Origin: an uncultured delta proteobacterium
Lineage (GTDB): Bacteria > Desulfobacterota > Binatia > UBA9968
NCBI GenBank assembly: GCA_963804165.1
Contig: CAWDPO010000046.1
Coordinates: 224,001 to 288,000, forward strand
Direction: 5' to 3'
DNA length: 64,000 nt
Part shown: piece after piece, positions 29,688 through 62,856 of the stretch
Layout: each line of letters opens with the position of its first letter
Position numbering within the stretch: the stretch's first letter is position 1
Translations under genes and position numbers: made by a program
The notes under the pieces: model-generated
The model's database searches: none
The model's input: only the letters and a program-made list of their open reading frames with translations
Told to the model about the DNA's origin: nothing

Positions 29688-29764
29688 GGGCCCATAGCTC
29701 AGTTGGTTAGAGCCACCGGCTCATAACCGGTTGGTCCCTGGTTCGAGTCCAGGTGGGCCCACCA
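29688..29764 (+). tRNA. tRNA with CAT anticodon, most likely tRNA-Ile2 (lysidine)
   Basis: GGGCCCA...TGGGCCC-ACCA acceptor, CCGGC-TCATAA-CCGG anticodon arm, GTTCGAG T-loop; lacks initiator features; located downstream of rpoD like E. coli ileX. Confidence 0.9.
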
Positions 29765-31171: not shown

Positions 31172-31657
31172 TTGTTAGACCACATAGATTTAAAAATACT
31201 TTATATTCTTCAAAATGACGGTCGACGGCGACTCGCCGATATCGCCGATGAGGTCGACTTGTCCGCGCCTGCCGTGATGGAGCGAGTCAAGAAGTTAGAA
31301 GCGAGCGGCGTCATTAGGGGTTATCAAGCTCTCATAGACGGCAAAAAAGTCGGTAAGGATATCACCGCGTTCATCGGTGTTTCGATCGGCAATCAACGCG
31401 ATATGGATAAGTTCGCGCATCAGATGATCGACTATCCGGATGTATTGGAGTGTCACCACGTTACCGGCGATGAAAGCTTCATGCTCAAAGTGAAATCAGC
31501 GAACACCGGCTCGTTGGAGAAGTTGCTTGGAGAGATTCGTTCCGTCGAGGGCGTGACCCGAACGGTTACGAAAGTGGTCTTATCCACGACAAAGGAGGGA
31601 CAGGCGCTGGAACTTGATGCCGGACTCGCGGAAGCGTCGCCTGTTAGAAAGAAGTGA
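31172..31657 (+). CDS. Lrp/AsnC family transcriptional regulator
   Basis: LDHIDLKIL..LQNDGR, ERVKKLE..GVIRGY, ECHHVTG. Confidence 0.92.
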   Translation: MLDHIDLKILYILQNDGRRRLADIADEVDLSAPAVMERVKKLEASGVIRGYQALIDGKKVGKDITAFIGVSIGNQRDMDKFAHQMIDYPDVLECHHVTGDESFMLKVKSANTGSLEKLLGEIRSVEGVTRTVTKVVLSTTKEGQALELDAGLAEASPVRKK

Positions 31658-31770
31658 CTTTTCCGATGTACGAATCGGCAAATGACTCGTCATGGATTGT
31701 TCGACAAACTCGCATGACGGCGTTGCAATCCAACGGCGATTCACGTTGAAATATATTGAAAGGTGAAATC

Positions 31771-36371
<4,601 letters not shown>

Positions 36372-36527: not shown

Positions 36528-38012
36528 ATGGGTAAACCGACTGGCTTTATGGAATATGAGCGCGAGCTACCCGAAGATCGCTCGCCGCTGGAACGGGTAA
36601 AGGACTGGAACGAGTTCCATGAACATTTCTCGGAAGAAAAGTTGCGCCATCAGGGCGCGCGCTGCATGGATTGCGGTATTCCGTTTTGCCATACCGGCCA
36701 ATTGATCAGCGGCATGGCTTCCGGTTGTCCAGTTAATAATTTAATTCCCGAGTGGAACGATCTCGTCTATCGCGGTCTTTGGCAAGAAGCGCTCAAGCGC
36801 TTACATAAGACGAACAACTTTCCGGAGTTCACTGGCCGCGTGTGTCCGGCGCCTTGTGAAGGCTCTTGCGTGCTCGGGCTAAACGAGCTGCCGGTCACGA
36901 TCAAAAACCTCGAGTGCGCGATTATCGATAACGGTTTCGCGCAAGGGTGGGTGAATCCCGACCCGCCCGAAAAGCGCACCGGGAAAAAAGTTGCCGTTAT
37001 CGGTTCGGGCCCGGCCGGTCTGGCGTGCGCGGACCAGCTCAATCGCGCGGGCCACATGATTACTGTCTACGAACGCGCCGACCGGATCGGTGGCCTGCTC
37101 ACGTACGGCATTCCCAACATGAAGCTCGACAAGACGATCGTGCAACGGCGTGTTGATTTAATGGCCGCGGAGGGCGTGGAGTTCATAACCAACGCTCATA
37201 TCGGAGTAGATCTGCCGGCGGCGAAATTGAAAAATGATTTCGATGCGGTGGTCATTTGCACCGGCGCCACCAAGGCGCGGGATTTACCGATTCCCGGGCG
37301 CGAGCTCAAGGGAATTCATATGGCCATGGAATTTCTTCTAGCCAACACGAAGAGCTTGCTCGACTCACAACGCCAGGATGGCAAATTCATCTCGGCCAAA
37401 GACAAGCATGTGATCGTGGTCGGTGGTGGAGATACTGGAACCGACTGTGTCGGCACGGCGATGCGGCACGGCTGTAAAAGCTTGACCCAATTGGAAATCT
37501 TACCGCGCCCTCCAGATACGCGCCAGCCCGACAATCCGTGGCCGGAATGGCCGAAAGTTTACAAGCTCGATTACGGCCAAGAAGAGGCCGCCGCCCGGTT
37601 TGGCGCGGACCCCCGCGTCTATCTGACCACGGGTGAAAAGTTCGTTGGCGACGACGCTGGCAACGTCAAAGAACTGCATATCTACGACGTCGAGTGGACG
37701 CGGAACGAACAGGGCGCATTTGTCCCAAGGCGAGTTCCAGCTTCCGAAAGAGTTTTGGCAGCGGAATTGGTTTTACTTGCGATGGGCTTCCTGGGACCGG
37801 AAGATACAGTGCTAACGCAGCTCCGCGTGGATCGCGATCCTCGGTCCAACGCCAGAGCCGAATACGGTCAGTTTGCCACGAACGTGCCGGGAATTTTTGC
37901 GGCGGGCGACTGCCGCCGCGGTCAGAGTCTGGTTGTTTGGGCGATCAACGAAGGGCGCGGCGCCGCGCGTGAGTGCGATCGCTTCCTCATGGGCGGAACG
38001 AATTTGCCGTAA
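36528..38012 (+). CDS. gltD: Glutamate synthase small subunit
   Basis: [44 protein letters not shown]. Confidence 0.96.
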
Positions 38013-38186: not shown

Positions 38187-38232
38187 GTCGGGAACGCGAC
38201 TTTCCCGACTTGACACTGTGTCAGTGATGTCA
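38187..38232. promoter_or_regulatory. Tandem palindromes, putative enhancer (UAS) for a sigma-54 activator
   Basis: GTCGGGAA-N7-TTCCCGAC (38187-38209) and TGACAC-T-GTGTCA (38211-38223), 75-110 nt upstream of the -24 box. Confidence 0.5.
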
Positions 38233-38296
38233 AAATCGAGGCCAATAGGGTGTCCAATTACACCGATTTACGGTCGTAACTAGTCTATTTTGGGCA

Positions 38297-38312
38297 TGGC
38301 ACTGGCGTTGCT
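38297..38312 (+). promoter_or_regulatory. Sigma-54 (-24/-12) promoter
   Basis: Consensus match TGGCAC-TGGCG-TTGCT. Confidence 0.75.
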
Positions 38313-38367
38313 TTAGGTAGCATGCGGAGGAATTAATTCTAGACGCGATATCGCGATAAAAATTAAC

Positions 38368-38477
38368 TCGCCTGAAAAAGCCGAACTCTCCGGGAAGGGA
38401 GGGCGGAAAGCCCCGGGTCCAGCGGCTGTCGGCGCTAGCGCTAAGCCGAGTCCGACTGCCGAGCCGGCCGAAAGCGA
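38368..38477 (+). ncRNA. Cyclic di-nucleotide riboswitch, c-di-GMP-I (GEMM) class
   Basis: P1 TCGC/GCGA; GCCGAAC-TCTCC-GGGA(GNRA)-AGGGA-GGGCGG-AAAG junction; P3 GCCCCGGGTC...GACTGCCGAGC; 3' GCCGAA; layout resembles deltaproteobacterial GEMM-I RNAs. Confidence 0.7.
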
Positions 38478-38513
38478 TGAGACTGAGGAAAACAGAACAC
38501 TCGGAGTTGCACT

Positions 38514-39197
38514 ATGAAACAAAATACCGCTCAGGTCGCGGAATCAATGGTTACCGTGGATCGTGATCAACTAGACAAAGTAAACGGCTCAGCCGCCGCC
38601 GATGTTCGGGGTTTCGCGAAACAGCTACGCGCTTTGGGACAGGCGCTGGAGAAATTCAAATTCTCCGCCTTCGATCTCCAGTTGCAAAGCGGCATATACG
38701 TTGTTACCGGAAGAGCCGCAACGGCGGAGCAGATAAAGTTTTCGTTTTCCCGATTCATGCGCGAATTGTTCGAGGGCGTGATGCCACGGACCACACATAC
38801 GTACACCCAAGACCAGATGGACTTACGCTTTTCACTCGAGGAGATCGAGCGGTTCGACGTGCGCGGCCGGGTAAAGCGCCAGGACTCAAACAAGATGCCC
38901 GACCCTTATAGTATCTCGCAAATCTTGCGTGGTGCGGGTGCTTATCTGGACAATCGCGAGGTCGCGAACCTCTCTGCAATTTCGTTGCGCGGCAAATGGG
39001 TGACAGTGGCGTATGAGAGCCCCGAAGGCCGATTGGAGCAAGCCAAACAAGATTTAGAATACTTTTACGACTACTGGGTAAGGATGTATATGCGCCGCAG
39101 CAATCGCGTAAAGGTACCGGCGCCCAGCGAACCGACGCTTTTCGTGACGTGGGAAGGAATCCAAAAAGCCCACAGGCTCACGAACGTTCCTGGATGA
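38514..39197 (+). CDS. Uncharacterised protein with internal duplication (LRxxGxxL[ED] twice); paralog of 59530-60036
   Basis: GGAG RBS; LRALGQALE and LRGAGAYLD halves; homologous to the second copy in the window. Confidence 0.75.
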   Translation: MKQNTAQVAESMVTVDRDQLDKVNGSAAADVRGFAKQLRALGQALEKFKFSAFDLQLQSGIYVVTGRAATAEQIKFSFSRFMRELFEGVMPRTTHTYTQDQMDLRFSLEEIERFDVRGRVKRQDSNKMPDPYSISQILRGAGAYLDNREVANLSAISLRGKWVTVAYESPEGRLEQAKQDLEYFYDYWVRMYMRRSNRVKVPAPSEPTLFVTWEGIQKAHRLTNVPG

Positions 39198-39537
39198 TTT
39201 CAAATATATTGCGTCCTATCATGGGCGAATCGGTATCCCCGGCCTCCATAGAATCACCCTGGGTGTTTCTTAGCTTCACGTTGCGCGCCATTATCATCCG
39301 GCGGCATGAGCCGCGATGACTTGATATCGCCTTTATCTCGATCGAAGCGCTCTTCAGTTGACAATTTAGAAGATCGGTTGTTATGTTTCGCAAGGCTTGG
39401 GAGCATGCGATCGATGCATTGTAAGTTGGCCGCGCGCAGGTTCTGCCAGGTGATTGCTCGCGCGCTCGGTAATTGGGAATAGGTTTTAGCTCGCGCTGTC
39501 GTCCCACGTCTGTACATTCAAAAGTAGAAGGATTGTG

Positions 39538-40389
39538 ATGGCTCAATATTCGATGAAATGGCCGAATAATGCTCGCGTTGCGTTTGTGCTCGGCATCGCG
39601 TTGGAAGCATGGGATCGGACGAAGCCGACACAGGGAGCCGCCCTGCAGTCGCCGCTGCCCAAAGACGCGCTTTACAAATGGGACTGGTCCACGGAAACTT
39701 TCCGAGACTTCGGCCCGAAGATCGGCATGAAGCGACTCCTCGATATCTGCGACCAATACAAGCTCAAAGTCAGTATTCCGTTAAACGGCCTGACGTGCGT
39801 CTACTATCCCGACCTGGTGAAAGATTGTTACGAACGCGGGCACGAGCTGGTCGCGCACGGTTGGGAAATGGGCGAACGCCTTTATATGTTAACGCGCGAA
39901 CAGGAGCGCGACAATATTCTAAAAACTATCGATGCGATTGTAAGAGTCACGGGCGAACGTCCCACCGGTTGGTCATCGCCCGGTGTGCGTCCGAGCGACA
40001 ATACGGTCGAGCTCCTGGTGGAAACCGGGTTGGAGTACCACTGCGATTTTCACGACGATGAGATGCCCTATCCGATCTGGGCGGGCGATAAGCTTCTAGT
40101 CGAGTTTCCGCACCAATACACGATCAACGATCATCGAACTCAGGAAGAGGGTACGCGCCACGAATTCTTTGAGAAATTCAAAGACGAGTTTGATTACCGT
40201 TACAAAATCGGCGATGCGAACCCGACGATGATGAACGTAATCACCCATGCTTACCTGAGCTCGCGCATTCCCTTGATCGATACATTCGAGCAGATCGTCG
40301 CTTATGCGACGAGTCATAAGGACGTATGGCTGGCCCGTCGCGGCGATGTAGCGGCATGGGCGCGTAAGCAGTTCTTGGCGAACCGATAA
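39538..40389 (+). CDS. Polysaccharide deacetylase (PuuE/allantoinase-like) family protein
   Basis: WPNNARVA, GHELVAHG, PTGWSSPG, DDEMPY, NDH. Confidence 0.85.
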   Translation: MAQYSMKWPNNARVAFVLGIALEAWDRTKPTQGAALQSPLPKDALYKWDWSTETFRDFGPKIGMKRLLDICDQYKLKVSIPLNGLTCVYYPDLVKDCYERGHELVAHGWEMGERLYMLTREQERDNILKTIDAIVRVTGERPTGWSSPGVRPSDNTVELLVETGLEYHCDFHDDEMPYPIWAGDKLLVEFPHQYTINDHRTQEEGTRHEFFEKFKDEFDYRYKIGDANPTMMNVITHAYLSSRIPLIDTFEQIVAYATSHKDVWLARRGDVAAWARKQFLANR

Positions 40390-40425
40390 GTCCCGTCAAG
40401 TATCTCGGTTAAAAGCCAACCGGAG

Positions 40426-41397
40426 CTACTTGATCCAGAGATTGTTCAGATCGCCGATATTCGGCAGCAGGCCCAATGAAATTCCCGACTGCAAAATTTT
40501 GTTTTGTGACTGGAAGAAGCCCTCGCCCCACTTATCGGCAAAGTTGGCTTTGTTCTGCTTCAGCCCTGCGGCGATCTCTTCCGGCGTGCTCAAATTGAAA
40601 AGTTCCTTGGCTTTCACCTTGAAGAAGTCCTCGTCTTGACCCAATTTAATCACTTGGACCGCATCGATATAAGCGCTGCGTATGGCCTTGACCAGCACCG
40701 GCTGTTTTTCTACGGTCTCCCTGAGCATACCTACTGTCGATTTGAGTGGCGGCGCGCCAAAGATATTCTCGAGCTCGATGTCGAAATCGGCGAGCACGCG
40801 ATACTTGCCGGACATCACCAATCTCGTCGTGTGCGGCTCGAACATGTTGATCGCCTCCACTTCGCCGCGTTCTAAAAGCGCGATCAGGGCGCCGGTTTCA
40901 GCGGGCACGTTTTGAAAATCTTTCTCGATGTCGAGCTTCTGCTCCTTTGCTATTACGGCGGAAAAAAAATAGGCGCCGGTGACACGTGCGAAGTTGCCGA
41001 TCTTTTTGCCCTTGAGGTCGCCGAAAGATTTGTACGGCGCGTCCTTACGCACTACCCAGGAGTTGCCGGACCATATTTGCGGCGTGATCAAACGAATATC
41101 CGTGCCGCTCTTGACCAGATTGACCGCGGTGCTCGGTTGCATGGCGCTCGCCACGGTGCGGCCGAGCTTTACCGCATTCGCCGCTTCGGTGAAGTCCATC
41201 ATCATGTTATTGATCTTAATGCCGTATTTGGTGTCGAGCTTTTTGCTTTCAATCAGGGCGGCGATGTAACCCGACTGGCCGGCGGCGCTGGTGGCGATAT
41301 TCACTGTCGGCAGCGCCTGGCCGGCAAGCGCCGGCGCGCCGAGACCTGATGCCAACAAACAAAAAAGCATGGCCGAATAATCCCGTCTCGTCATCAT
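40426..41397 (-). CDS. ABC transporter substrate-binding protein (SsuA/TauA/NMT1 type)
   Basis: Signal peptide, DLKGKKIG, LERGEVEA; in an operon with ATPase and permease. Confidence 0.85.
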   Translation of the reverse strand: MMTRRDYSAMLFCLLASGLGAPALAGQALPTVNIATSAAGQSGYIAALIESKKLDTKYGIKINNMMMDFTEAANAVKLGRTVASAMQPSTAVNLVKSGTDIRLITPQIWSGNSWVVRKDAPYKSFGDLKGKKIGNFARVTGAYFFSAVIAKEQKLDIEKDFQNVPAETGALIALLERGEVEAINMFEPHTTRLVMSGKYRVLADFDIELENIFGAPPLKSTVGMLRETVEKQPVLVKAIRSAYIDAVQVIKLGQDEDFFKVKAKELFNLSTPEEIAAGLKQNKANFADKWGEGFFQSQNKILQSGISLGLLPNIGDLNNLWIK

Positions 41398-42155
41398 AAT
41401 TCGTCATCCTCCTTCAGACTCACTTTGGTTTCCAGCTCGGCAGCAAAATTATAAATCTCCGGGCACCAGCGACGCGGAGAAGGCAGCGGATTGGTCACGT
41501 AGGCATCGAGACGCGCCGGTCGGTTGGTCAGCGTGACAACGTAATCGCTCATATAGGCCGCTTCGGCGAGATTGTGCGTGACGAAAAGAACCGTGCGGTG
41601 CAATTGCTCACAGAGGCGCCGCGTCGTCTGGCGAAGTTTGCGCGCCGTAAGCTCATCGACGCTGGCGAAGGGTTCGTCCATGAGGACGATGTCGGACTCG
41701 ATTGCCAATGCGCGGGCTAAGCCGACGCGTTGGCGTTGGCCGCCGGAAAGATAGAGCGGAAATTGGTTGACGTATTCTTCGAGTCCGACAAGCCGCAGAT
41801 AGTGAGCGACACGCGACTCCCACTCGCTGTGAGCAACGCCGGCGGCTTTCAAGACGAGGCAAATGTTTTCGCCGATCGTTTTCCACGGCAGCAGGCGCGG
41901 GCTTTGAAACACGTAGCCAATGAGCGGCCGTGGTTGACTCCTGCCTGCGGTGAGAAATAGGAGATCGCCGCTGTCGAGTTTTTCCAGTCCGACGATGGAA
42001 TTGAGCAGGGTCGATTTGCCGCAGCCGGATGGCCCGATCAGAACCGTCACGCAGCCCTCGTGCGCTTCGAAGGACAGCCGGTCAATGACTTTCAGCGGCT
42101 GACCATCCTCGCGGCGAAACCACTTCTCCGCGTCCTGAACCAAAAGCTCGGCCAC
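41394..42155 (-). CDS. ABC transporter ATP-binding protein (SsuB/TauB type)
   Basis: GPSGCGKST, LSGGQRQRV, MDEPFASVD. Confidence 0.92.
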   Translation of the reverse strand: MAELLVQDAEKWFRREDGQPLKVIDRLSFEAHEGCVTVLIGPSGCGKSTLLNSIVGLEKLDSGDLLFLTAGRSQPRPLIGYVFQSPRLLPWKTIGENICLVLKAAGVAHSEWESRVAHYLRLVGLEEYVNQFPLYLSGGQRQRVGLARALAIESDIVLMDEPFASVDELTARKLRQTTRRLCEQLHRTVLFVTHNLAEAAYMSDYVVTLTNRPARLDAYVTNPLPSPRRWCPEIYNFAAELETKVSLKEDDEL

Positions 42156-43019
42156 CTAACGTCTCCAAACGTCGATTTTCGGGCGCCAAGCCGTGAGGCG
42201 TCGCTCGGCGAAGTTGATGATGCCGTATTCGATCACGATCATCGCGACCACGAACGTGAGCGTCCAGGCGATGACCCCTTCCATGTTGAAGACTTGATAG
42301 GATTTCATCACTTGATAGCCGACGCCGTTGCTGGTGCCGAACATTTCCACGACCACGACGACTTTCCAGGCAAGTCCTAAGCCATAGCGCGTCGCGGCAA
42401 AAATATTCGGCACTAGTTGCGGCAGGATGACCTGAGAGATCTTCATCCACTTGGTAAAATGAAAGACGTGGCTCATATCCATGAGCTCTTTATCGAGGGA
42501 TTTTACTCCCGCCCAGATGTTGATGACCAGCATGGGAAAAATCGTGACCGTCACGGCGAAGTAGGGAGAAAACTCATTGATGCCGAAGAGCATGACGGCG
42601 ATCAGCGCCCACATCAAACCGGGGATGGTTAGCCCGAGCACGACCAAGGGCTGAAAGAAACGTTCACCCATGACGACCGTACCCATATAAATGCCGACGC
42701 CGACGCTGAAGAACATCGCGATCACCGCACCGACGAATACCCGCCGCAAGCTTTGATACATATGGAAAAAGAACGTGCCGTCCGAAACCAACCGGGTCGC
42801 TTCCCGAACCGTGCTCAGCGGACTGGGCAACAGGCGCGGATAGATCGCCCAGAGTGCCCACCAGACGAGGACCACGCTTGATACGGCCAGCAGCGGCGGC
42901 AAAAGGCGTGCAGTCAAAGCGTGCGCCGAAGAGCTGGCGAAGGGCGGCACCGTTTCTGCGCCGGCGACGCCCGCACTTTGCCCCGCCATGGTTGCTTGGT
43001 TGTTTTGCTCGAAGGCCAT
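42156..43019 (-). CDS. ABC transporter permease (SsuC/TauC type)
   Basis: LPSP, SLRRV, EAA-like loop, AWKVVVVVEM. Confidence 0.9.
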   Translation of the reverse strand: MAFEQNNQATMAGQSAGVAGAETVPPFASSSAHALTARLLPPLLAVSSVVLVWWALWAIYPRLLPSPLSTVREATRLVSDGTFFFHMYQSLRRVFVGAVIAMFFSVGVGIYMGTVVMGERFFQPLVVLGLTIPGLMWALIAVMLFGINEFSPYFAVTVTIFPMLVINIWAGVKSLDKELMDMSHVFHFTKWMKISQVILPQLVPNIFAATRYGLGLAWKVVVVVEMFGTSNGVGYQVMKSYQVFNMEGVIAWTLTFVVAMIVIEYGIINFAERRLTAWRPKIDVWRR

Positions 43020-59529: not shown

Positions 59530-60036
59530 TCACTTTCGAAGTCGACAAGACCTCCGCAGGTGCATATCGACTCCGTGATCATGCAGATTTTGTGGCGTGA
59601 AACTTGTCTCCTCGTAACCACCGTCACGGGTTTCGTATTTAACCACTACCGACTGAATAGTCCACCTTATATCAAAGGCTACGGCTCTATTTCTATCCAA
59701 ATAGTCACCGAGTACACGCAGGCCTGCCGAAAGCTTGTGAGCGTCCAGATCGTCGCTTGAACCTCGTCTTGACCGTCCCTGAGTTTCTAACCGGGTAGTG
59801 TCGGAGTTGGTATAGACTAGAAGTTCCGGGGACCGTTGGGGCGTTGAAACCATTTGATCGGAATCGCCCCTTCCCCAAACCTCACCAGTGACACTCTTTA
59901 GAAAGCTTGGTTCCCAGTTATGCACAACGTATTTTTCGCCAGTTTTTTTTAATGCGAAAGCCTTAATGCGGAGCACCTCTAATGCCTGCCCGATGACTCT
60001 AAGAGATTGGGAGTATGATTTAGTGGTAGGTGCCAT
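59530..60036 (-). CDS. Uncharacterised protein with internal duplication; paralog of 38514-39197
   Basis: LRVIGQALE, AFAL, YVV, LRVLGDYLD, VVVKYET, MHLRRS colinear with the 38514 protein. Confidence 0.75.
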   Translation of the reverse strand: MAPTTKSYSQSLRVIGQALEVLRIKAFALKKTGEKYVVHNWEPSFLKSVTGEVWGRGDSDQMVSTPQRSPELLVYTNSDTTRLETQGRSRRGSSDDLDAHKLSAGLRVLGDYLDRNRAVAFDIRWTIQSVVVKYETRDGGYEETSFTPQNLHDHGVDMHLRRSCRLRK

Positions 60037-60217
60037 CAATAGCCGATCCCCGCCGTATAGAAAGCAATTTGTTTGAATTTGCGAGAAGGCCAGCAACCGC
60101 GGAAGCAAATAGCGTTCTTCAAATCAGTCACGCAGCTTGCCATCTGGGCGCGCAGTTTCCCGCAGAACGTAACAGAGTAATTGGCACAAAATAGAAGAAT
60201 CAGCACGTTGTCTCGAA

Positions 60218-61263
60218 TTACATCCCAGACGTTTTGTCTCGAACCAGGCGCTGAACGTAACATAGACTGTCTCTTGAGTCGAAAACATTCTGGCCGCAAG
60301 TGACTGTTCCCTGGAGCTTACCTGGGCCCGGGAATGCGTCGTCGGTGTTATTGCCTTTGTCGGGACAAAAGCTGCGCCCAATCTGTGATGTTCTGGCACT
60401 GGGTTAAGTTGCCGCCATTTTTTATCACCGGAATCAAGTAGCAACGATTACGGGTCGGCTTTGAACATCGGCTTGAGGTGGCCATTAACGATCGTTTCAT
60501 TCACACCGTTTGCGACATTTCCACAATAGCCAACATCGATTGCGGGCTGGCCCGCGCAATAAGGCAGCTTTTCGAACAGGGCGCGAACCTCATCGCGTGC
60601 TGGCGTTGTCTATTTGATAAGTTTCCCAGCCGCCGGTGCTATTGCCTCCCGACTGGAAATCCAAAATTACAGTCACGATTCGGGCCTTTGCAGAGACCTT
60701 CCACGACTACGATCGGCAGTCCGGGAAGCGCCTGGTTCACAGCAACGGCGCTGACGCTCACATCGGCTGTCGTTCTAGCTGGCTTGCCCAAACAAATTGA
60801 GCAGTGGCGTCAAGAACAGCGGGGATTTCATGGCTTTCGCAGCGCTTCCGCCGTAGGGGTTGGTATTTTCTAATGCCACTCGAGCTCCGTTCGCATTGTT
60901 GATGTTGACTCCTGACGTGGTAAATTCGCCGGTCCCGTTGTCATATTTCACGAGGGTCACGTTCTTTTGATCGATTTGATTGTTAGGACTGTCGAGATAA
61001 TTGTTTCCGGTGCCGGGATTTGTTCCGCCGGGGTTAAACTTTGCCGCTCGGTCTGTAACTGTCGACCAGTTTCCACTCGGGATTGCCGATGCGGCAGCCA
61101 GCGCCGCCGCATCCACGGCCGGCTGACCCTGAGATCGCACATAGGCCAGATGTCCTGTGTCTAATCCCATGCCGACCATGATCAAGAGCAAAACAATCAT
61201 CAGAGTCATGAAGACGAGCGCATAGCCTTGTTGATTTTTTAACGGCTGCATATAAGCCTCCAT
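60218..61263 (-). CDS. TadG-like pilus assembly protein, broken by about five frameshifts
   Basis: QQGYALVF..TM..GLDTG..Y..VDAAALAAA N-terminus; coding-like frames continue (VSVSAVA..LPIVV, GWETY, CYLIPVI, RLVRD) to TAA at 60218. Confidence 0.7.
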
Positions 61264-61267
61264 TGAC

Positions 61268-61786
61268 CTAAGCGGAATAGGGTCCGTAACTGGTCGGAGT
61301 CGTGCAATAATTATTATTTATGTAGGGCTGATATTTGTAGTGCATTTGCGTTCCCCGAGAGATCGTCAGAGTGTTTGGAGCGCTACCGCCAAACAATCGT
61401 ATTAACTGATACATGAAAAATTTGTATTGACCCTGTGCCTTCACTTCGACAAATTCCATACAGGCCGTTCCCGTGTAAAATGTCACCGTGACGGTCTTGT
61501 TTGTCAGGTAGGCTGGCAATCGGCTAATGACTTCTGTTTTCACCGTATCGGCTTCAGCCGAGCTAAAGATTAGGTTGGGAACGTTGCCGCTCTTTTGAAG
61601 TCCGCTGCCGATGCGCGCTCCCTCCCGAGCCGCGGTCTGAATCAGGTTACCCATAAAAAACGAAACACCGAAATCGACGGGTATATACAACGCAATCAGC
61701 AAGAGCGGAGTAATGAGCGAAATCTCGACGATTCCCTGACCTCTTTGATTATTGCGCATCGATCCATTTTCACTCACAGCGTTCAT
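61268..61786 (-). CDS. TadE-like pseudopilin
   Basis: RGQGIVE prepilin cleavage motif, TM helix, AAREGAR. Confidence 0.88.
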   Translation of the reverse strand: MNAVSENGSMRNNQRGQGIVEISLITPLLLIALYIPVDFGVSFFMGNLIQTAAREGARIGSGLQKSGNVPNLIFSSAEADTVKTEVISRLPAYLTNKTVTVTFYTGTACMEFVEVKAQGQYKFFMYQLIRLFGGSAPNTLTISRGTQMHYKYQPYINNNYCTTPTSYGPYSA

Positions 61787-61831
61787 TGGTTGGCCCTCCC
61801 TGTTTTCGCTCGTTCACTTCGAACTCACGCG

Positions 61832-62335
61832 TTAGCATCCCGCTTGCGCCTCCCACCTCATGCGTGTTTGACGCGTGATCGGCGTATCGTTTAAGTTTCC
61901 TGAGACGCCCACCCAATGGAGGAGCTGGTAGAAAAAGAAGTGGTAGGTTCCGGATACCGCGACTGTCACCATCCGGTTGCAATTTGTTCCTATATCAGGA
62001 TCTAGGTTCACCGTGATCGTCGCGGCTGGAAGGAGCGCCGCCGAAATCCTTCCTGCGGTTTCCTTAAATATGTTTCCTGTACAAGAAGGCACGACGCAGC
62101 TGGTCGTTCCGCTAACGAGCGTGCGATCGGCCGACGCGATTCTGGCTCCTTCACGCGCGGCGTTCTGAGCGAGCTGCCCCGTATAGAACGCAAGCCCAAA
62201 ATCTGCCGGTATCCAGGCGACAATCAGCAGGATTAGAAACGTCAGCGTGAACTCGACCACGGCTTGGCCTGACGAACCGGTTAAACCCATTAGACCCTTT
62301 CGACTTAGAAGCGGGGAAGATGAATCAAGTGACAT
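61832..62335 (-). CDS. TadE-like pseudopilin
   Basis: SGQAVVEF, TM helix, AAREGAR; AAGGAG RBS before ATG at 62335. Confidence 0.88.
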   Translation of the reverse strand: MSLDSSSPLLSRKGLMGLTGSSGQAVVEFTLTFLILLIVAWIPADFGLAFYTGQLAQNAAREGARIASADRTLVSGTTSCVVPSCTGNIFKETAGRISAALLPAATITVNLDPDIGTNCNRMVTVAVSGTYHFFFYQLLHWVGVSGNLNDTPITRQTRMRWEAQAGC

Positions 62336-62856
62336 CTTTCGAACTCCTTCTGCTTTCCGCACATTTATTGTTTTGCTACTGTCGCCCGCTGTGATTGAGC
62401 AACACTGTTGCTATTTACGGGCCGTGAGACAGCGATGACGAAACCGACATTCGAATTGACATTGCCGTCATTGCGCCGTCCGATTTCGTGTAGAGAGACC
62501 TGGCGGACGAACAGAATTGCTCTGTTCATTTCTGGCAAAACTAAATGGCAAAAGACTTTTGCGGCAAAGCGTGATGTGAATAGGAAGAAACTGGGATGCT
62601 CGTAGTCAATTCGTGTTGATAGTTCTTTTGGGAGTATGTCAGGTGCTTAAACGTCAAGACATGACGTGCAGGAGATTGCAGTGCGATCAGGCGGCGTCTA
62701 CGACGACTCCAGAAGAACAGCAAAGCATTCAAACCCCACGGTCAAAGAGAAATGCTGCGCCTAAGGGTTTGGGATGTTAAAAGTCCGAGCACTGCTGGAG
62801 TTCCCTTTATTTTTGGGAACAATGTGAGAGAAAAAATATACTTGTATGACTTTATG

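Follow-up and report, generated by a model that had tools for sequence, protein, structure and literature searches.

A putative enhancer-dependent promoter and a predicted c-di-GMP-I riboswitch in front of a gene from an undescribed protein family of Binatia-like bacteria

What controls the gene for a 227-amino acid protein that lies behind the glutamate synthase genes of an uncultured, soil-dwelling, Binatia-like bacterium, and what might its product do? A first-pass annotation of the 64,000-nucleotide stretch of DNA analyzed here (the window) had proposed that an enhancer, a sigma-54 promoter and a c-di-GMP-I riboswitch are stacked in three layers in front of this gene, and that the gene is an unrecognized output of a lifestyle switch. 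Records of homologues carry mostly the labels Candidatus Binatia or uncultured deltaproteobacteria. The locus is made up of the following elements:

29688-29761, + strand: tRNA
31172-31657, + strand: Lrp/AsnC-type regulator, upstream of gltB
31756-36371, + strand: gltB, glutamate synthase large subunit, present as three overlapping ORFs owing to frameshifts
36528-38012, + strand: gltD, encoding the small subunit of glutamate synthase (808.9 bits to TIGR01317, exceeding the cut-off)
38187-38194/38202-38209: first palindrome; left arm not conserved, right arm overlapping the conserved upstream element
38211-38216/38218-38223: second palindrome, present in the sequence
38203-38233, + strand: putative upstream activator sequence for an enhancer-binding protein, at roughly -120 to -90 relative to the predicted start
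38297-38312, + strand: sigma-54 -24/-12 box, TGGCAC-N5-TTGCT, with a predicted start near 38323
38330-38369, + strand: imperfect hairpin, predicted to lie at the 5' end of the RNA (20-nt arms, 75% complementary)
38368-38477, + strand: predicted c-di-GMP-I (GEMM-I) aptamer of a C21-G46 subtype (G20 = 38380, A47 = 38407, C92 = 38468)
38396, 38413 and 38465, with an extra G at 38466, + strand: private deviations of the window's aptamer in the leader alignment
38453-38464, + strand: 3' strand of aptamer stem P2, predicted anti-Shine-Dalgarno sequence of the ligand-free fold, pairing with the ribosome-binding region
38503-38506, + strand: Shine-Dalgarno sequence GGAG, conserved in the leader alignment
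38514-39197, + strand: gene of the 227-aa protein, with its ATG at 38514
39535-43019, opposite strand: polysaccharide deacetylase and ABC transporter, downstream of the gene

The frameshifts that split gltB are probably assembly indels. The ribosome-binding site and the ATG at 38514 are both present as had been annotated. The tRNA, the Lrp/AsnC regulator and the deacetylase with its ABC transporter are frequently syntenic with the gene.

The -24/-12 promoter is the part of the leader that we hold with the greatest assurance; it is almost certainly real. A search of the 64-kb window with TGGCAC-N5-TTGCW returned a single match, the exact consensus that had been called at 38297-38312, against 0.03 expected by chance, and this site carries the GG-N10-GC signature. 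A corresponding box is found in 43 of the 49 distinct homologous leaders, a set derived from 94 loci by requiring a protein identity of 59% or more and 380 nt of DNA upstream, and by removing duplicates. The genome encodes rpoN, and the sigma-54 activator domain has 34 matches in it, 28 of them near full length.

Upstream of the box, the segment 38203-38233 contains TG(T/C)CA half-sites, one inverted and three direct, at a fixed spacing to the promoter; the second block of this element lies 76-80 nt 5' of the sigma-54 box in 35/35 training leaders. When the window was held out, the resulting enhancer model scored it at 28.1 bits, and none of the genome's remaining 2692 sigma-54-like sites exceeded 11.1. 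The element was detected in 43/49 distinct leaders, a count that is partly circular because the 35 training leaders were mostly drawn from the same set. It is this segment, a putative protein-binding site at constant distance, that represents the conserved upstream activator sequence. Both palindromes previously noted at 38187-38223 exist, but the first has no counterpart (a perfect inverted repeat of at least 7 bp occurs at its site in 0 of 43 homologous leaders), and the conserved element falls partly outside of the palindromic region.

Searching this genome with the full enhancer model yielded no second site, and the promoters of Flp, tadE and polysaccharide genes score low with it. Counting half-sites gave another picture: at least three are present in 9 of 11 promoters of this kind, and three each in front of both sigma-54-led Flp-like pilin genes of the genome, versus 0.63% of background sites. 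This counting rule, which was set after inspection of the data, alone links the element at 38203-38233 to the Flp, tadE and polysaccharide promoters. Five further high-scoring sigma-54 sites with at least three half-sites lead mixed genes, none of them pilins. The arrangement may resemble what we take to be the PilR site of Pseudomonas aeruginosa, with its four TGTC-containing sites. Apart from this, three sigma-54 boxes (G000:C46:204036, C32:28073 and C3:70422, + strand) share a related element in the DNA upstream of them, in which two TGTCA half-sites enclose a GCCAA/TTGGC core, and two of the boxes precede genes for secreted repeat proteins; they possibly belong to a separate regulon of another enhancer-binding protein.

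Does the leader RNA contain a genuine aptamer? A covariance search matched 38371-38473 to RF03167 of the c-di-GMP-I clan (39.1 bits, E 1e-7). The GEMM-like RNA annotated at 38368-38477 holds as regards the clan and the outer P1 arms (38368-38371 and 38474-38477), but its score falls below the Rfam gathering score of 59, and no riboswitch in the 64-kb window attains its gathering score. Seven of 13 homologous loci from named genomes exceed a cut-off of the clan, so that the family passes the threshold that the window copy misses; two of the loci have class-II aptamers. Class-I aptamer matches were found in 46/49 distinct leaders, two of these being decayed remnants. An alignment of 41 of 53 distinct leaders, in which kinship can inflate the covariation test, has 94.2% of the cells of the aptamer structure paired, with 27 two-sided changes and six base pairs showing a two-sided change; none of 500 shuffles scored as high and slid controls remained at or below 53%. 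The proposed check by covariation across homologous leaders hence came out in favor of the aptamer, and covariation supports the P1/P1b/P2 three-way junction with its GNRA loop. Enhancer element, sigma-54 box and aptamer occur together in 41/49 distinct leaders, so the expected conservation of the leader upstream of homologues was borne out. A glutamine (glnA) riboswitch, considered because gltBD adjoins the leader, was rejected, the c-di-GMP-I clan being the sole match. Hairpins of differing sequence are seen by eye at the position equivalent to 38330-38369 in several homologues. The C21-G46 subtype could already be contained in riboswitch lists that supplement papers from Rfam or the Breaker laboratory.

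The ligand can be approached through the contact bases, whose numbering we transferred through the Rfam alignment. The G at 38380 aligns to position 20, as had been claimed, and G20, A47 and C92, to which ligand roles are assigned (PMC6140456; PMC5888326), are present in 41/41 leaders including that of the window. G20 reads a guanine of c-di-GMP, and wild-type Vc2 discriminates against cGAMP (PMC6140456); A20, the mark of cGAMP sensors (PMC6140456; PMC5888326) and of GEMM-Ib, occurs in none of the 41 leaders. RF03167 (c-di-GMP-I-GGC) gives the best score, though its G47 is replaced by A47 in 41/41 leaders, and C21-G46 replaces the G21-C46 pair of the model. Hypr GGDEF enzymes carry a Ser at the specificity position, nine residues past a conserved Asn (PMC6456294). 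The genome, which is 81% complete, has 15 GGDEF matches, 13 of which could be aligned and 12 of which cover this position: 11 have Asp, one has Asn and none has Ser. Since G20 is combined with the lack of a Hypr-type Ser in the 12 readable domains, c-di-GMP is the favored ligand, as first suggested from the base at 38380, and we consider it very likely that the aptamers of this family sense it.

The C21-G46 pair, which presumably resembles that of Geobacter GEMM-I aptamers, would suit an aptamer for 3',3'-cGAMP, or for both dinucleotides; we regard this as very improbable. Bispecific GEMM-Ib aptamers do occur naturally (PMC6140456), and a genome just 81% complete leaves some room for such a reading, but the invariant G20 and the residues at the Hypr position argue against it, as does the use of a c-di-GMP-II aptamer in a branch of nine family members described below. 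As a separate observation, locus L144 (G089:C181:1702-1792, - strand) has a c-di-GMP-I aptamer with, by eye, an A at position 20, possibly a cGAMP or bispecific sensor.

The window's own copy of the aptamer, predicted as above to bind c-di-GMP, is not a typical one. The extra G beside C92 is found in this copy alone (1/41 leaders); its other deviations, A36, C53 and C90, occur in two, three and four of the 41 leaders, respectively, and the window leader folds no better than shuffled sequences. An assembly error was considered because gltB is split, and was rejected: an independent 189-nt contig, possibly from a related sample and with a depth of 2.4, has zero differences from the window over 38322-38510. 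The deviations adjoin the binding pocket, and for this reason the window copy may not respond. One could hence imagine that the architecture is real in the family and that the aptamer is decaying in this genome, the gene now standing under the sigma-54 promoter alone. Four departures from a near-invariant consensus, one of them an insertion beside C92 in what the independent contig indicates is real sequence, speak for this, and the closest homologue (L013) also breaks two aptamer pairs. Moreover, the aptamer is wholly gone from several homologues (L014, L078, L085 and L097 retain promoter and enhancer), and L102 and L105 contain decayed remnants. However, the window copy keeps G20, A47, C92, the C44-G83 pair and P1, its long P2 extension still pairs, and three of its four changes appear singly in other homologues. 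On balance we judge decay to be the less likely of these outcomes, and a window copy that still responds to its ligand to be reasonably probable.

In which direction would the switch act? Because the 3' strand of the aptamer pairs with the ribosome-binding site, an ON switch at the level of translation is predicted, and we think this likely. Over the 41 leaders the helix between anti-Shine-Dalgarno strand and ribosome-binding site is 86.8% paired (slid controls at most 39.7%), with one compensatory column pair that reads U-A in 15 leaders and C-G in nine; 39 of 500 column shuffles match this degree of pairing, which is therefore not clearly above shuffle. The duplex is stronger than that of shuffled tails (p<0.05) in 25 of the 41 leaders, and no better than shuffled in the window copy (z -0.7). 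With the ensemble constrained to the aptamer fold, the ribosome-binding site is more open in 32/41 leaders (median unpaired 0.25 vs. 0.61). Between aptamer and ATG, no terminator of the sigma-70 type, nor any site resembling one, was found on the + strand.

How unusual is such a leader? All four c-di-GMP riboswitches of this genome (three class-I, one class-II) have a sigma-54 box upstream, and of the best 30 RF01051 loci across 90 genomes of the bacterial family, a strict box lies no more than 300 nt away in 24 (0.7% expected by chance); most of these 30 loci lead genes for secreted surface proteins. The three-layer stack is thus not special: the control layout is routine in this lineage and a variant of known parts. 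A limited literature search found no paper describing how sigma-54 promoters and c-di-GMP riboswitches are paired throughout this lineage, a combination that would give the surface genes of an uncultured soil group a simple gate with two inputs. Two canonical c-di-GMP-I riboswitches behind sigma-54 boxes (G000:C42:142336-142422 and G000:C23:14977-15065, both on the - strand) lead secreted repeat proteins whose first domain is fibronectin-like by eye. At L050 (G000:C30:108301-108385, - strand), a c-di-GMP-II aptamer that scores 53.1 bits and has a U run resembling a terminator lies downstream of a sigma-54 box; a Flp-like pilin gene and an apparently decayed family member follow it.

The constant neighbor of the 227-aa gene is gltD, no pilus gene. 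Of 118 homologous loci, counting duplicates, 68 keep the gltD cluster upstream, and gltD precedes 23/23 aptamer-led gene copies (among 30 loci). A role in nitrogen assimilation together with gltBD, under a nitrogen-controlled sigma-54 promoter, would fit this constancy. NtrC-type enhancers have the consensus TGCAC-N7-GTGCA. The element at 38203-38233 is not of this type, and its half-sites are common to Flp-like pilin promoters; the gene has its own promoter, and copies away from gltD have moved to a pilin gene. Although glutamate synthase of Geobacter is under RpoN control (PMC2725144), we consider a role of the gene in nitrogen assimilation improbable.

The product itself is a basic, cytoplasmic protein with 283 close homologues. 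Its family forms 512 clusters at 50% identity and has 35 ORF hits in this genome (about 32 loci after merging split pieces); it is present in 80/89 other genomes of the bacterial family, in 0/142 sampled genomes from other families of the class and in 0/300 sampled genomes of the phylum (10 candidates scored per genome). Pfam had no match to the gene product, and among 119 members no Pfam or NCBIfam family was matched by more than two at E 0.1; two profiles run against PDB sequences and a search of the ESM Atlas returned nothing. None of the 119 members has a hydrophobic segment, their median pI is 9.1, and an Arg, a Tyr and a Gly are near-invariant. A structure model (pLDDT 80.5, pTM 0.70) predicts two alpha-beta-beta-beta-alpha units, and the two halves of the protein align to each other (internal repeat probability 75.6). 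Foldseek comparison of both models with the PDB, and of the second with viral structures, gave nothing at E 0.001 or below; a wide structure comparison (VIA), run twice, gave best Z scores of 5.6 and 5.3. None of these comparisons produced a known nucleic-acid-binding fold. The PepSY-like tandem proteins FoxB (7abw; Z 5.3, rmsd 3.8, 101 aligned) and CD1622 (4exr; Z 4.4, rmsd 4.2, 106 aligned) share with it a weak likeness, a repeated unit of a helix and a small sheet, at scores within the range of common arrangements and at 5-8% identity; they are exported or membrane proteins, whereas the family here lacks hydrophobic segments. No homology to PilT or PilU was detected (probability 0.3 and 0.2), and 8000 candidates contained no fusions of 456-2000 aa, which is weak evidence. 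By eye, some members (P0240; P0188, P0178; G000:C35:167321-168220, - strand) carry an extension that is either receiver-like and C-terminal or Cys-rich, zinc-finger-like and N-terminal. Judged by these searches, the protein family is undescribed, large and restricted to a single family of Binatia-like bacteria, and it is a more valuable lead than the regulatory layout.

What its members do is suggested by the neighborhoods of paralogues. Three tandem paralogues (G000:C20:53787-55553) lie directly after pilT-pilU, the whole segment being G000:C20:51189-55553 (+ strand; L181), an arrangement conserved in relatives: pilT/pilU is found just upstream in 15 of 20 regions, 15 of which had been picked for tandem hits (14/15 with pilT/pilU) and five for single hits (1/5), the kin genomes not being independent. 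A second member of the family is present in the window:

59530-60036, - strand: family member, downstream of tadE/tadG-like genes
59530-62362, - strand: three genes, two of them TadE-like and one TadG-like, and after them this family member (TadE and Tad Pfam matches above cut-off at 60775-62362)

In addition, a quick tree of 88 rows nests a branch of nine rows (support 99) in the gene's own 44-row clade (support 100). The genes of this branch follow a 62-aa Flp-like pilin gene, a label that rests on weak Pfam matches missing the cut-off (best E 6.5e-4), and upstream of the pilin gene lie a sigma-54 box and a c-di-GMP-II aptamer; the class-II cut-off was passed by 10 of 16 loci tested. Three of the nine branch members had been labelled before checking, and the pilin was present in 3/3 and the class-II cut-off passed in one. 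A decayed class-I leader lies between the Flp-like pilin gene and the family gene at L102:1550-1679 and L105:2372-2503, apparently an intermediate of a regulatory hand-over from class I to class II. Beyond the family, the C21-G46 aptamer subtype leads tadE-like genes in 3/5 and polysaccharide-type genes in 2/5 regions (labels assigned by eye).

Among the paralogue loci listed (about 32 in the genome), most have neither a pilus neighbor nor a sigma-54 box, and these unrelated contexts leave room for another view, in which the family consists of general cytoplasmic regulators that bind nucleic acids or proteins and have no special tie to pili, the pilus neighbors belonging to a few of many copies. 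The basic, segment-free character of the members, their near-invariant Arg, Tyr and Gly residues and the extensions seen by eye would agree with this view. Yet the pilus-linked contexts are three separate ones, one of them conserved across genera, and structural matches to known nucleic-acid-binding folds were lacking; we deem general regulators rather unlikely. A pilus-related function of the 227-aa protein, in turn, we put slightly short of an even chance. Our best guess for the gene product is a c-di-GMP-induced cytoplasmic accessory of pili or of surface attachment, and the earlier suggestion of a lifestyle-switch output gene fits these pilus-pointing neighborhoods.

Collectively, we are slightly inclined toward an AND gate, in which enhancer- and sigma-54-dependent transcription is combined with a c-di-GMP ON switch and an accessory protein of pili as the product. 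An enhancer-binding protein at 38203-38233 would activate sigma-54 polymerase at 38297-38312, with transcription starting near 38323 as judged from conservation, and the leader would then fold as a c-di-GMP-I aptamer, the fold being indicated by covariation and the ligand by the contact bases. In the absence of ligand, 38453-38464 would pair with the ribosome-binding site and translation would be off; bound c-di-GMP would lock the aptamer, free the ribosome-binding site and permit translation. Gene context suggests that the product might assist or modulate the activity of type IV pili (PilT/PilU or Tad) in a surface-attachment switch. More tentatively, and with considerable doubt, one may envisage an undescribed two-repeat family, possibly with a new fold, that has expanded to up to 30-odd copies tuning the motors of type IVa and Tad pili, with this gene as a c-di-GMP-inducible member. 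Its clade would have stood under two unrelated classes of c-di-GMP riboswitches in turn, the decayed class-I remnants marking the hand-over, within a sigma-54 regulon whose enhancer-binding proteins gate c-di-GMP riboswitches. If the family does modulate pilus motors, c-di-GMP outputs and PilT/PilU accessories would each gain a new class. The riboswitch class itself is known; the predicted translational ON design, with its covarying anti-Shine-Dalgarno pairs, lends itself to testing and might be of use in biosensors.

Compared with known systems, the leader shares with Vc2 of Vibrio cholerae and the clan CL00126 (RF01051, RF03167) the three-way junction, the GNRA loop, G20/A47/C92 and the C44-G83 pair; it differs from the Vc2 model in its C21-G46 pair, which replaces G21-C46, and in a long, variable P2 extension. 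Vc2 is a translational OFF switch (PMC9262584), whereas the leader described here is predicted to be a translational ON switch that uses its own 3' strand as the anti-Shine-Dalgarno sequence. The GEMM-Ib cGAMP riboswitches of Geobacter (pilM, pgcA, Gs1761) have the same fold, are ON switches and lie upstream of pilus or polysaccharide genes (PMC6456294, PMC9262584), that of pilM acting on transcription (PMC9262584). They carry A20, act by way of a terminator and depend on the Hypr GGDEF enzyme GacA, in contrast to the G20 found here, where neither a terminator nor a Hypr signature was detected in leader and genome. With respect to the promoter, the closest parallel is provided by pilin genes under RpoN-PilR control (PMC7170775): PilR-activated sigma-54 pilin promoters likewise have several short half-sites upstream of a -24/-12 box.
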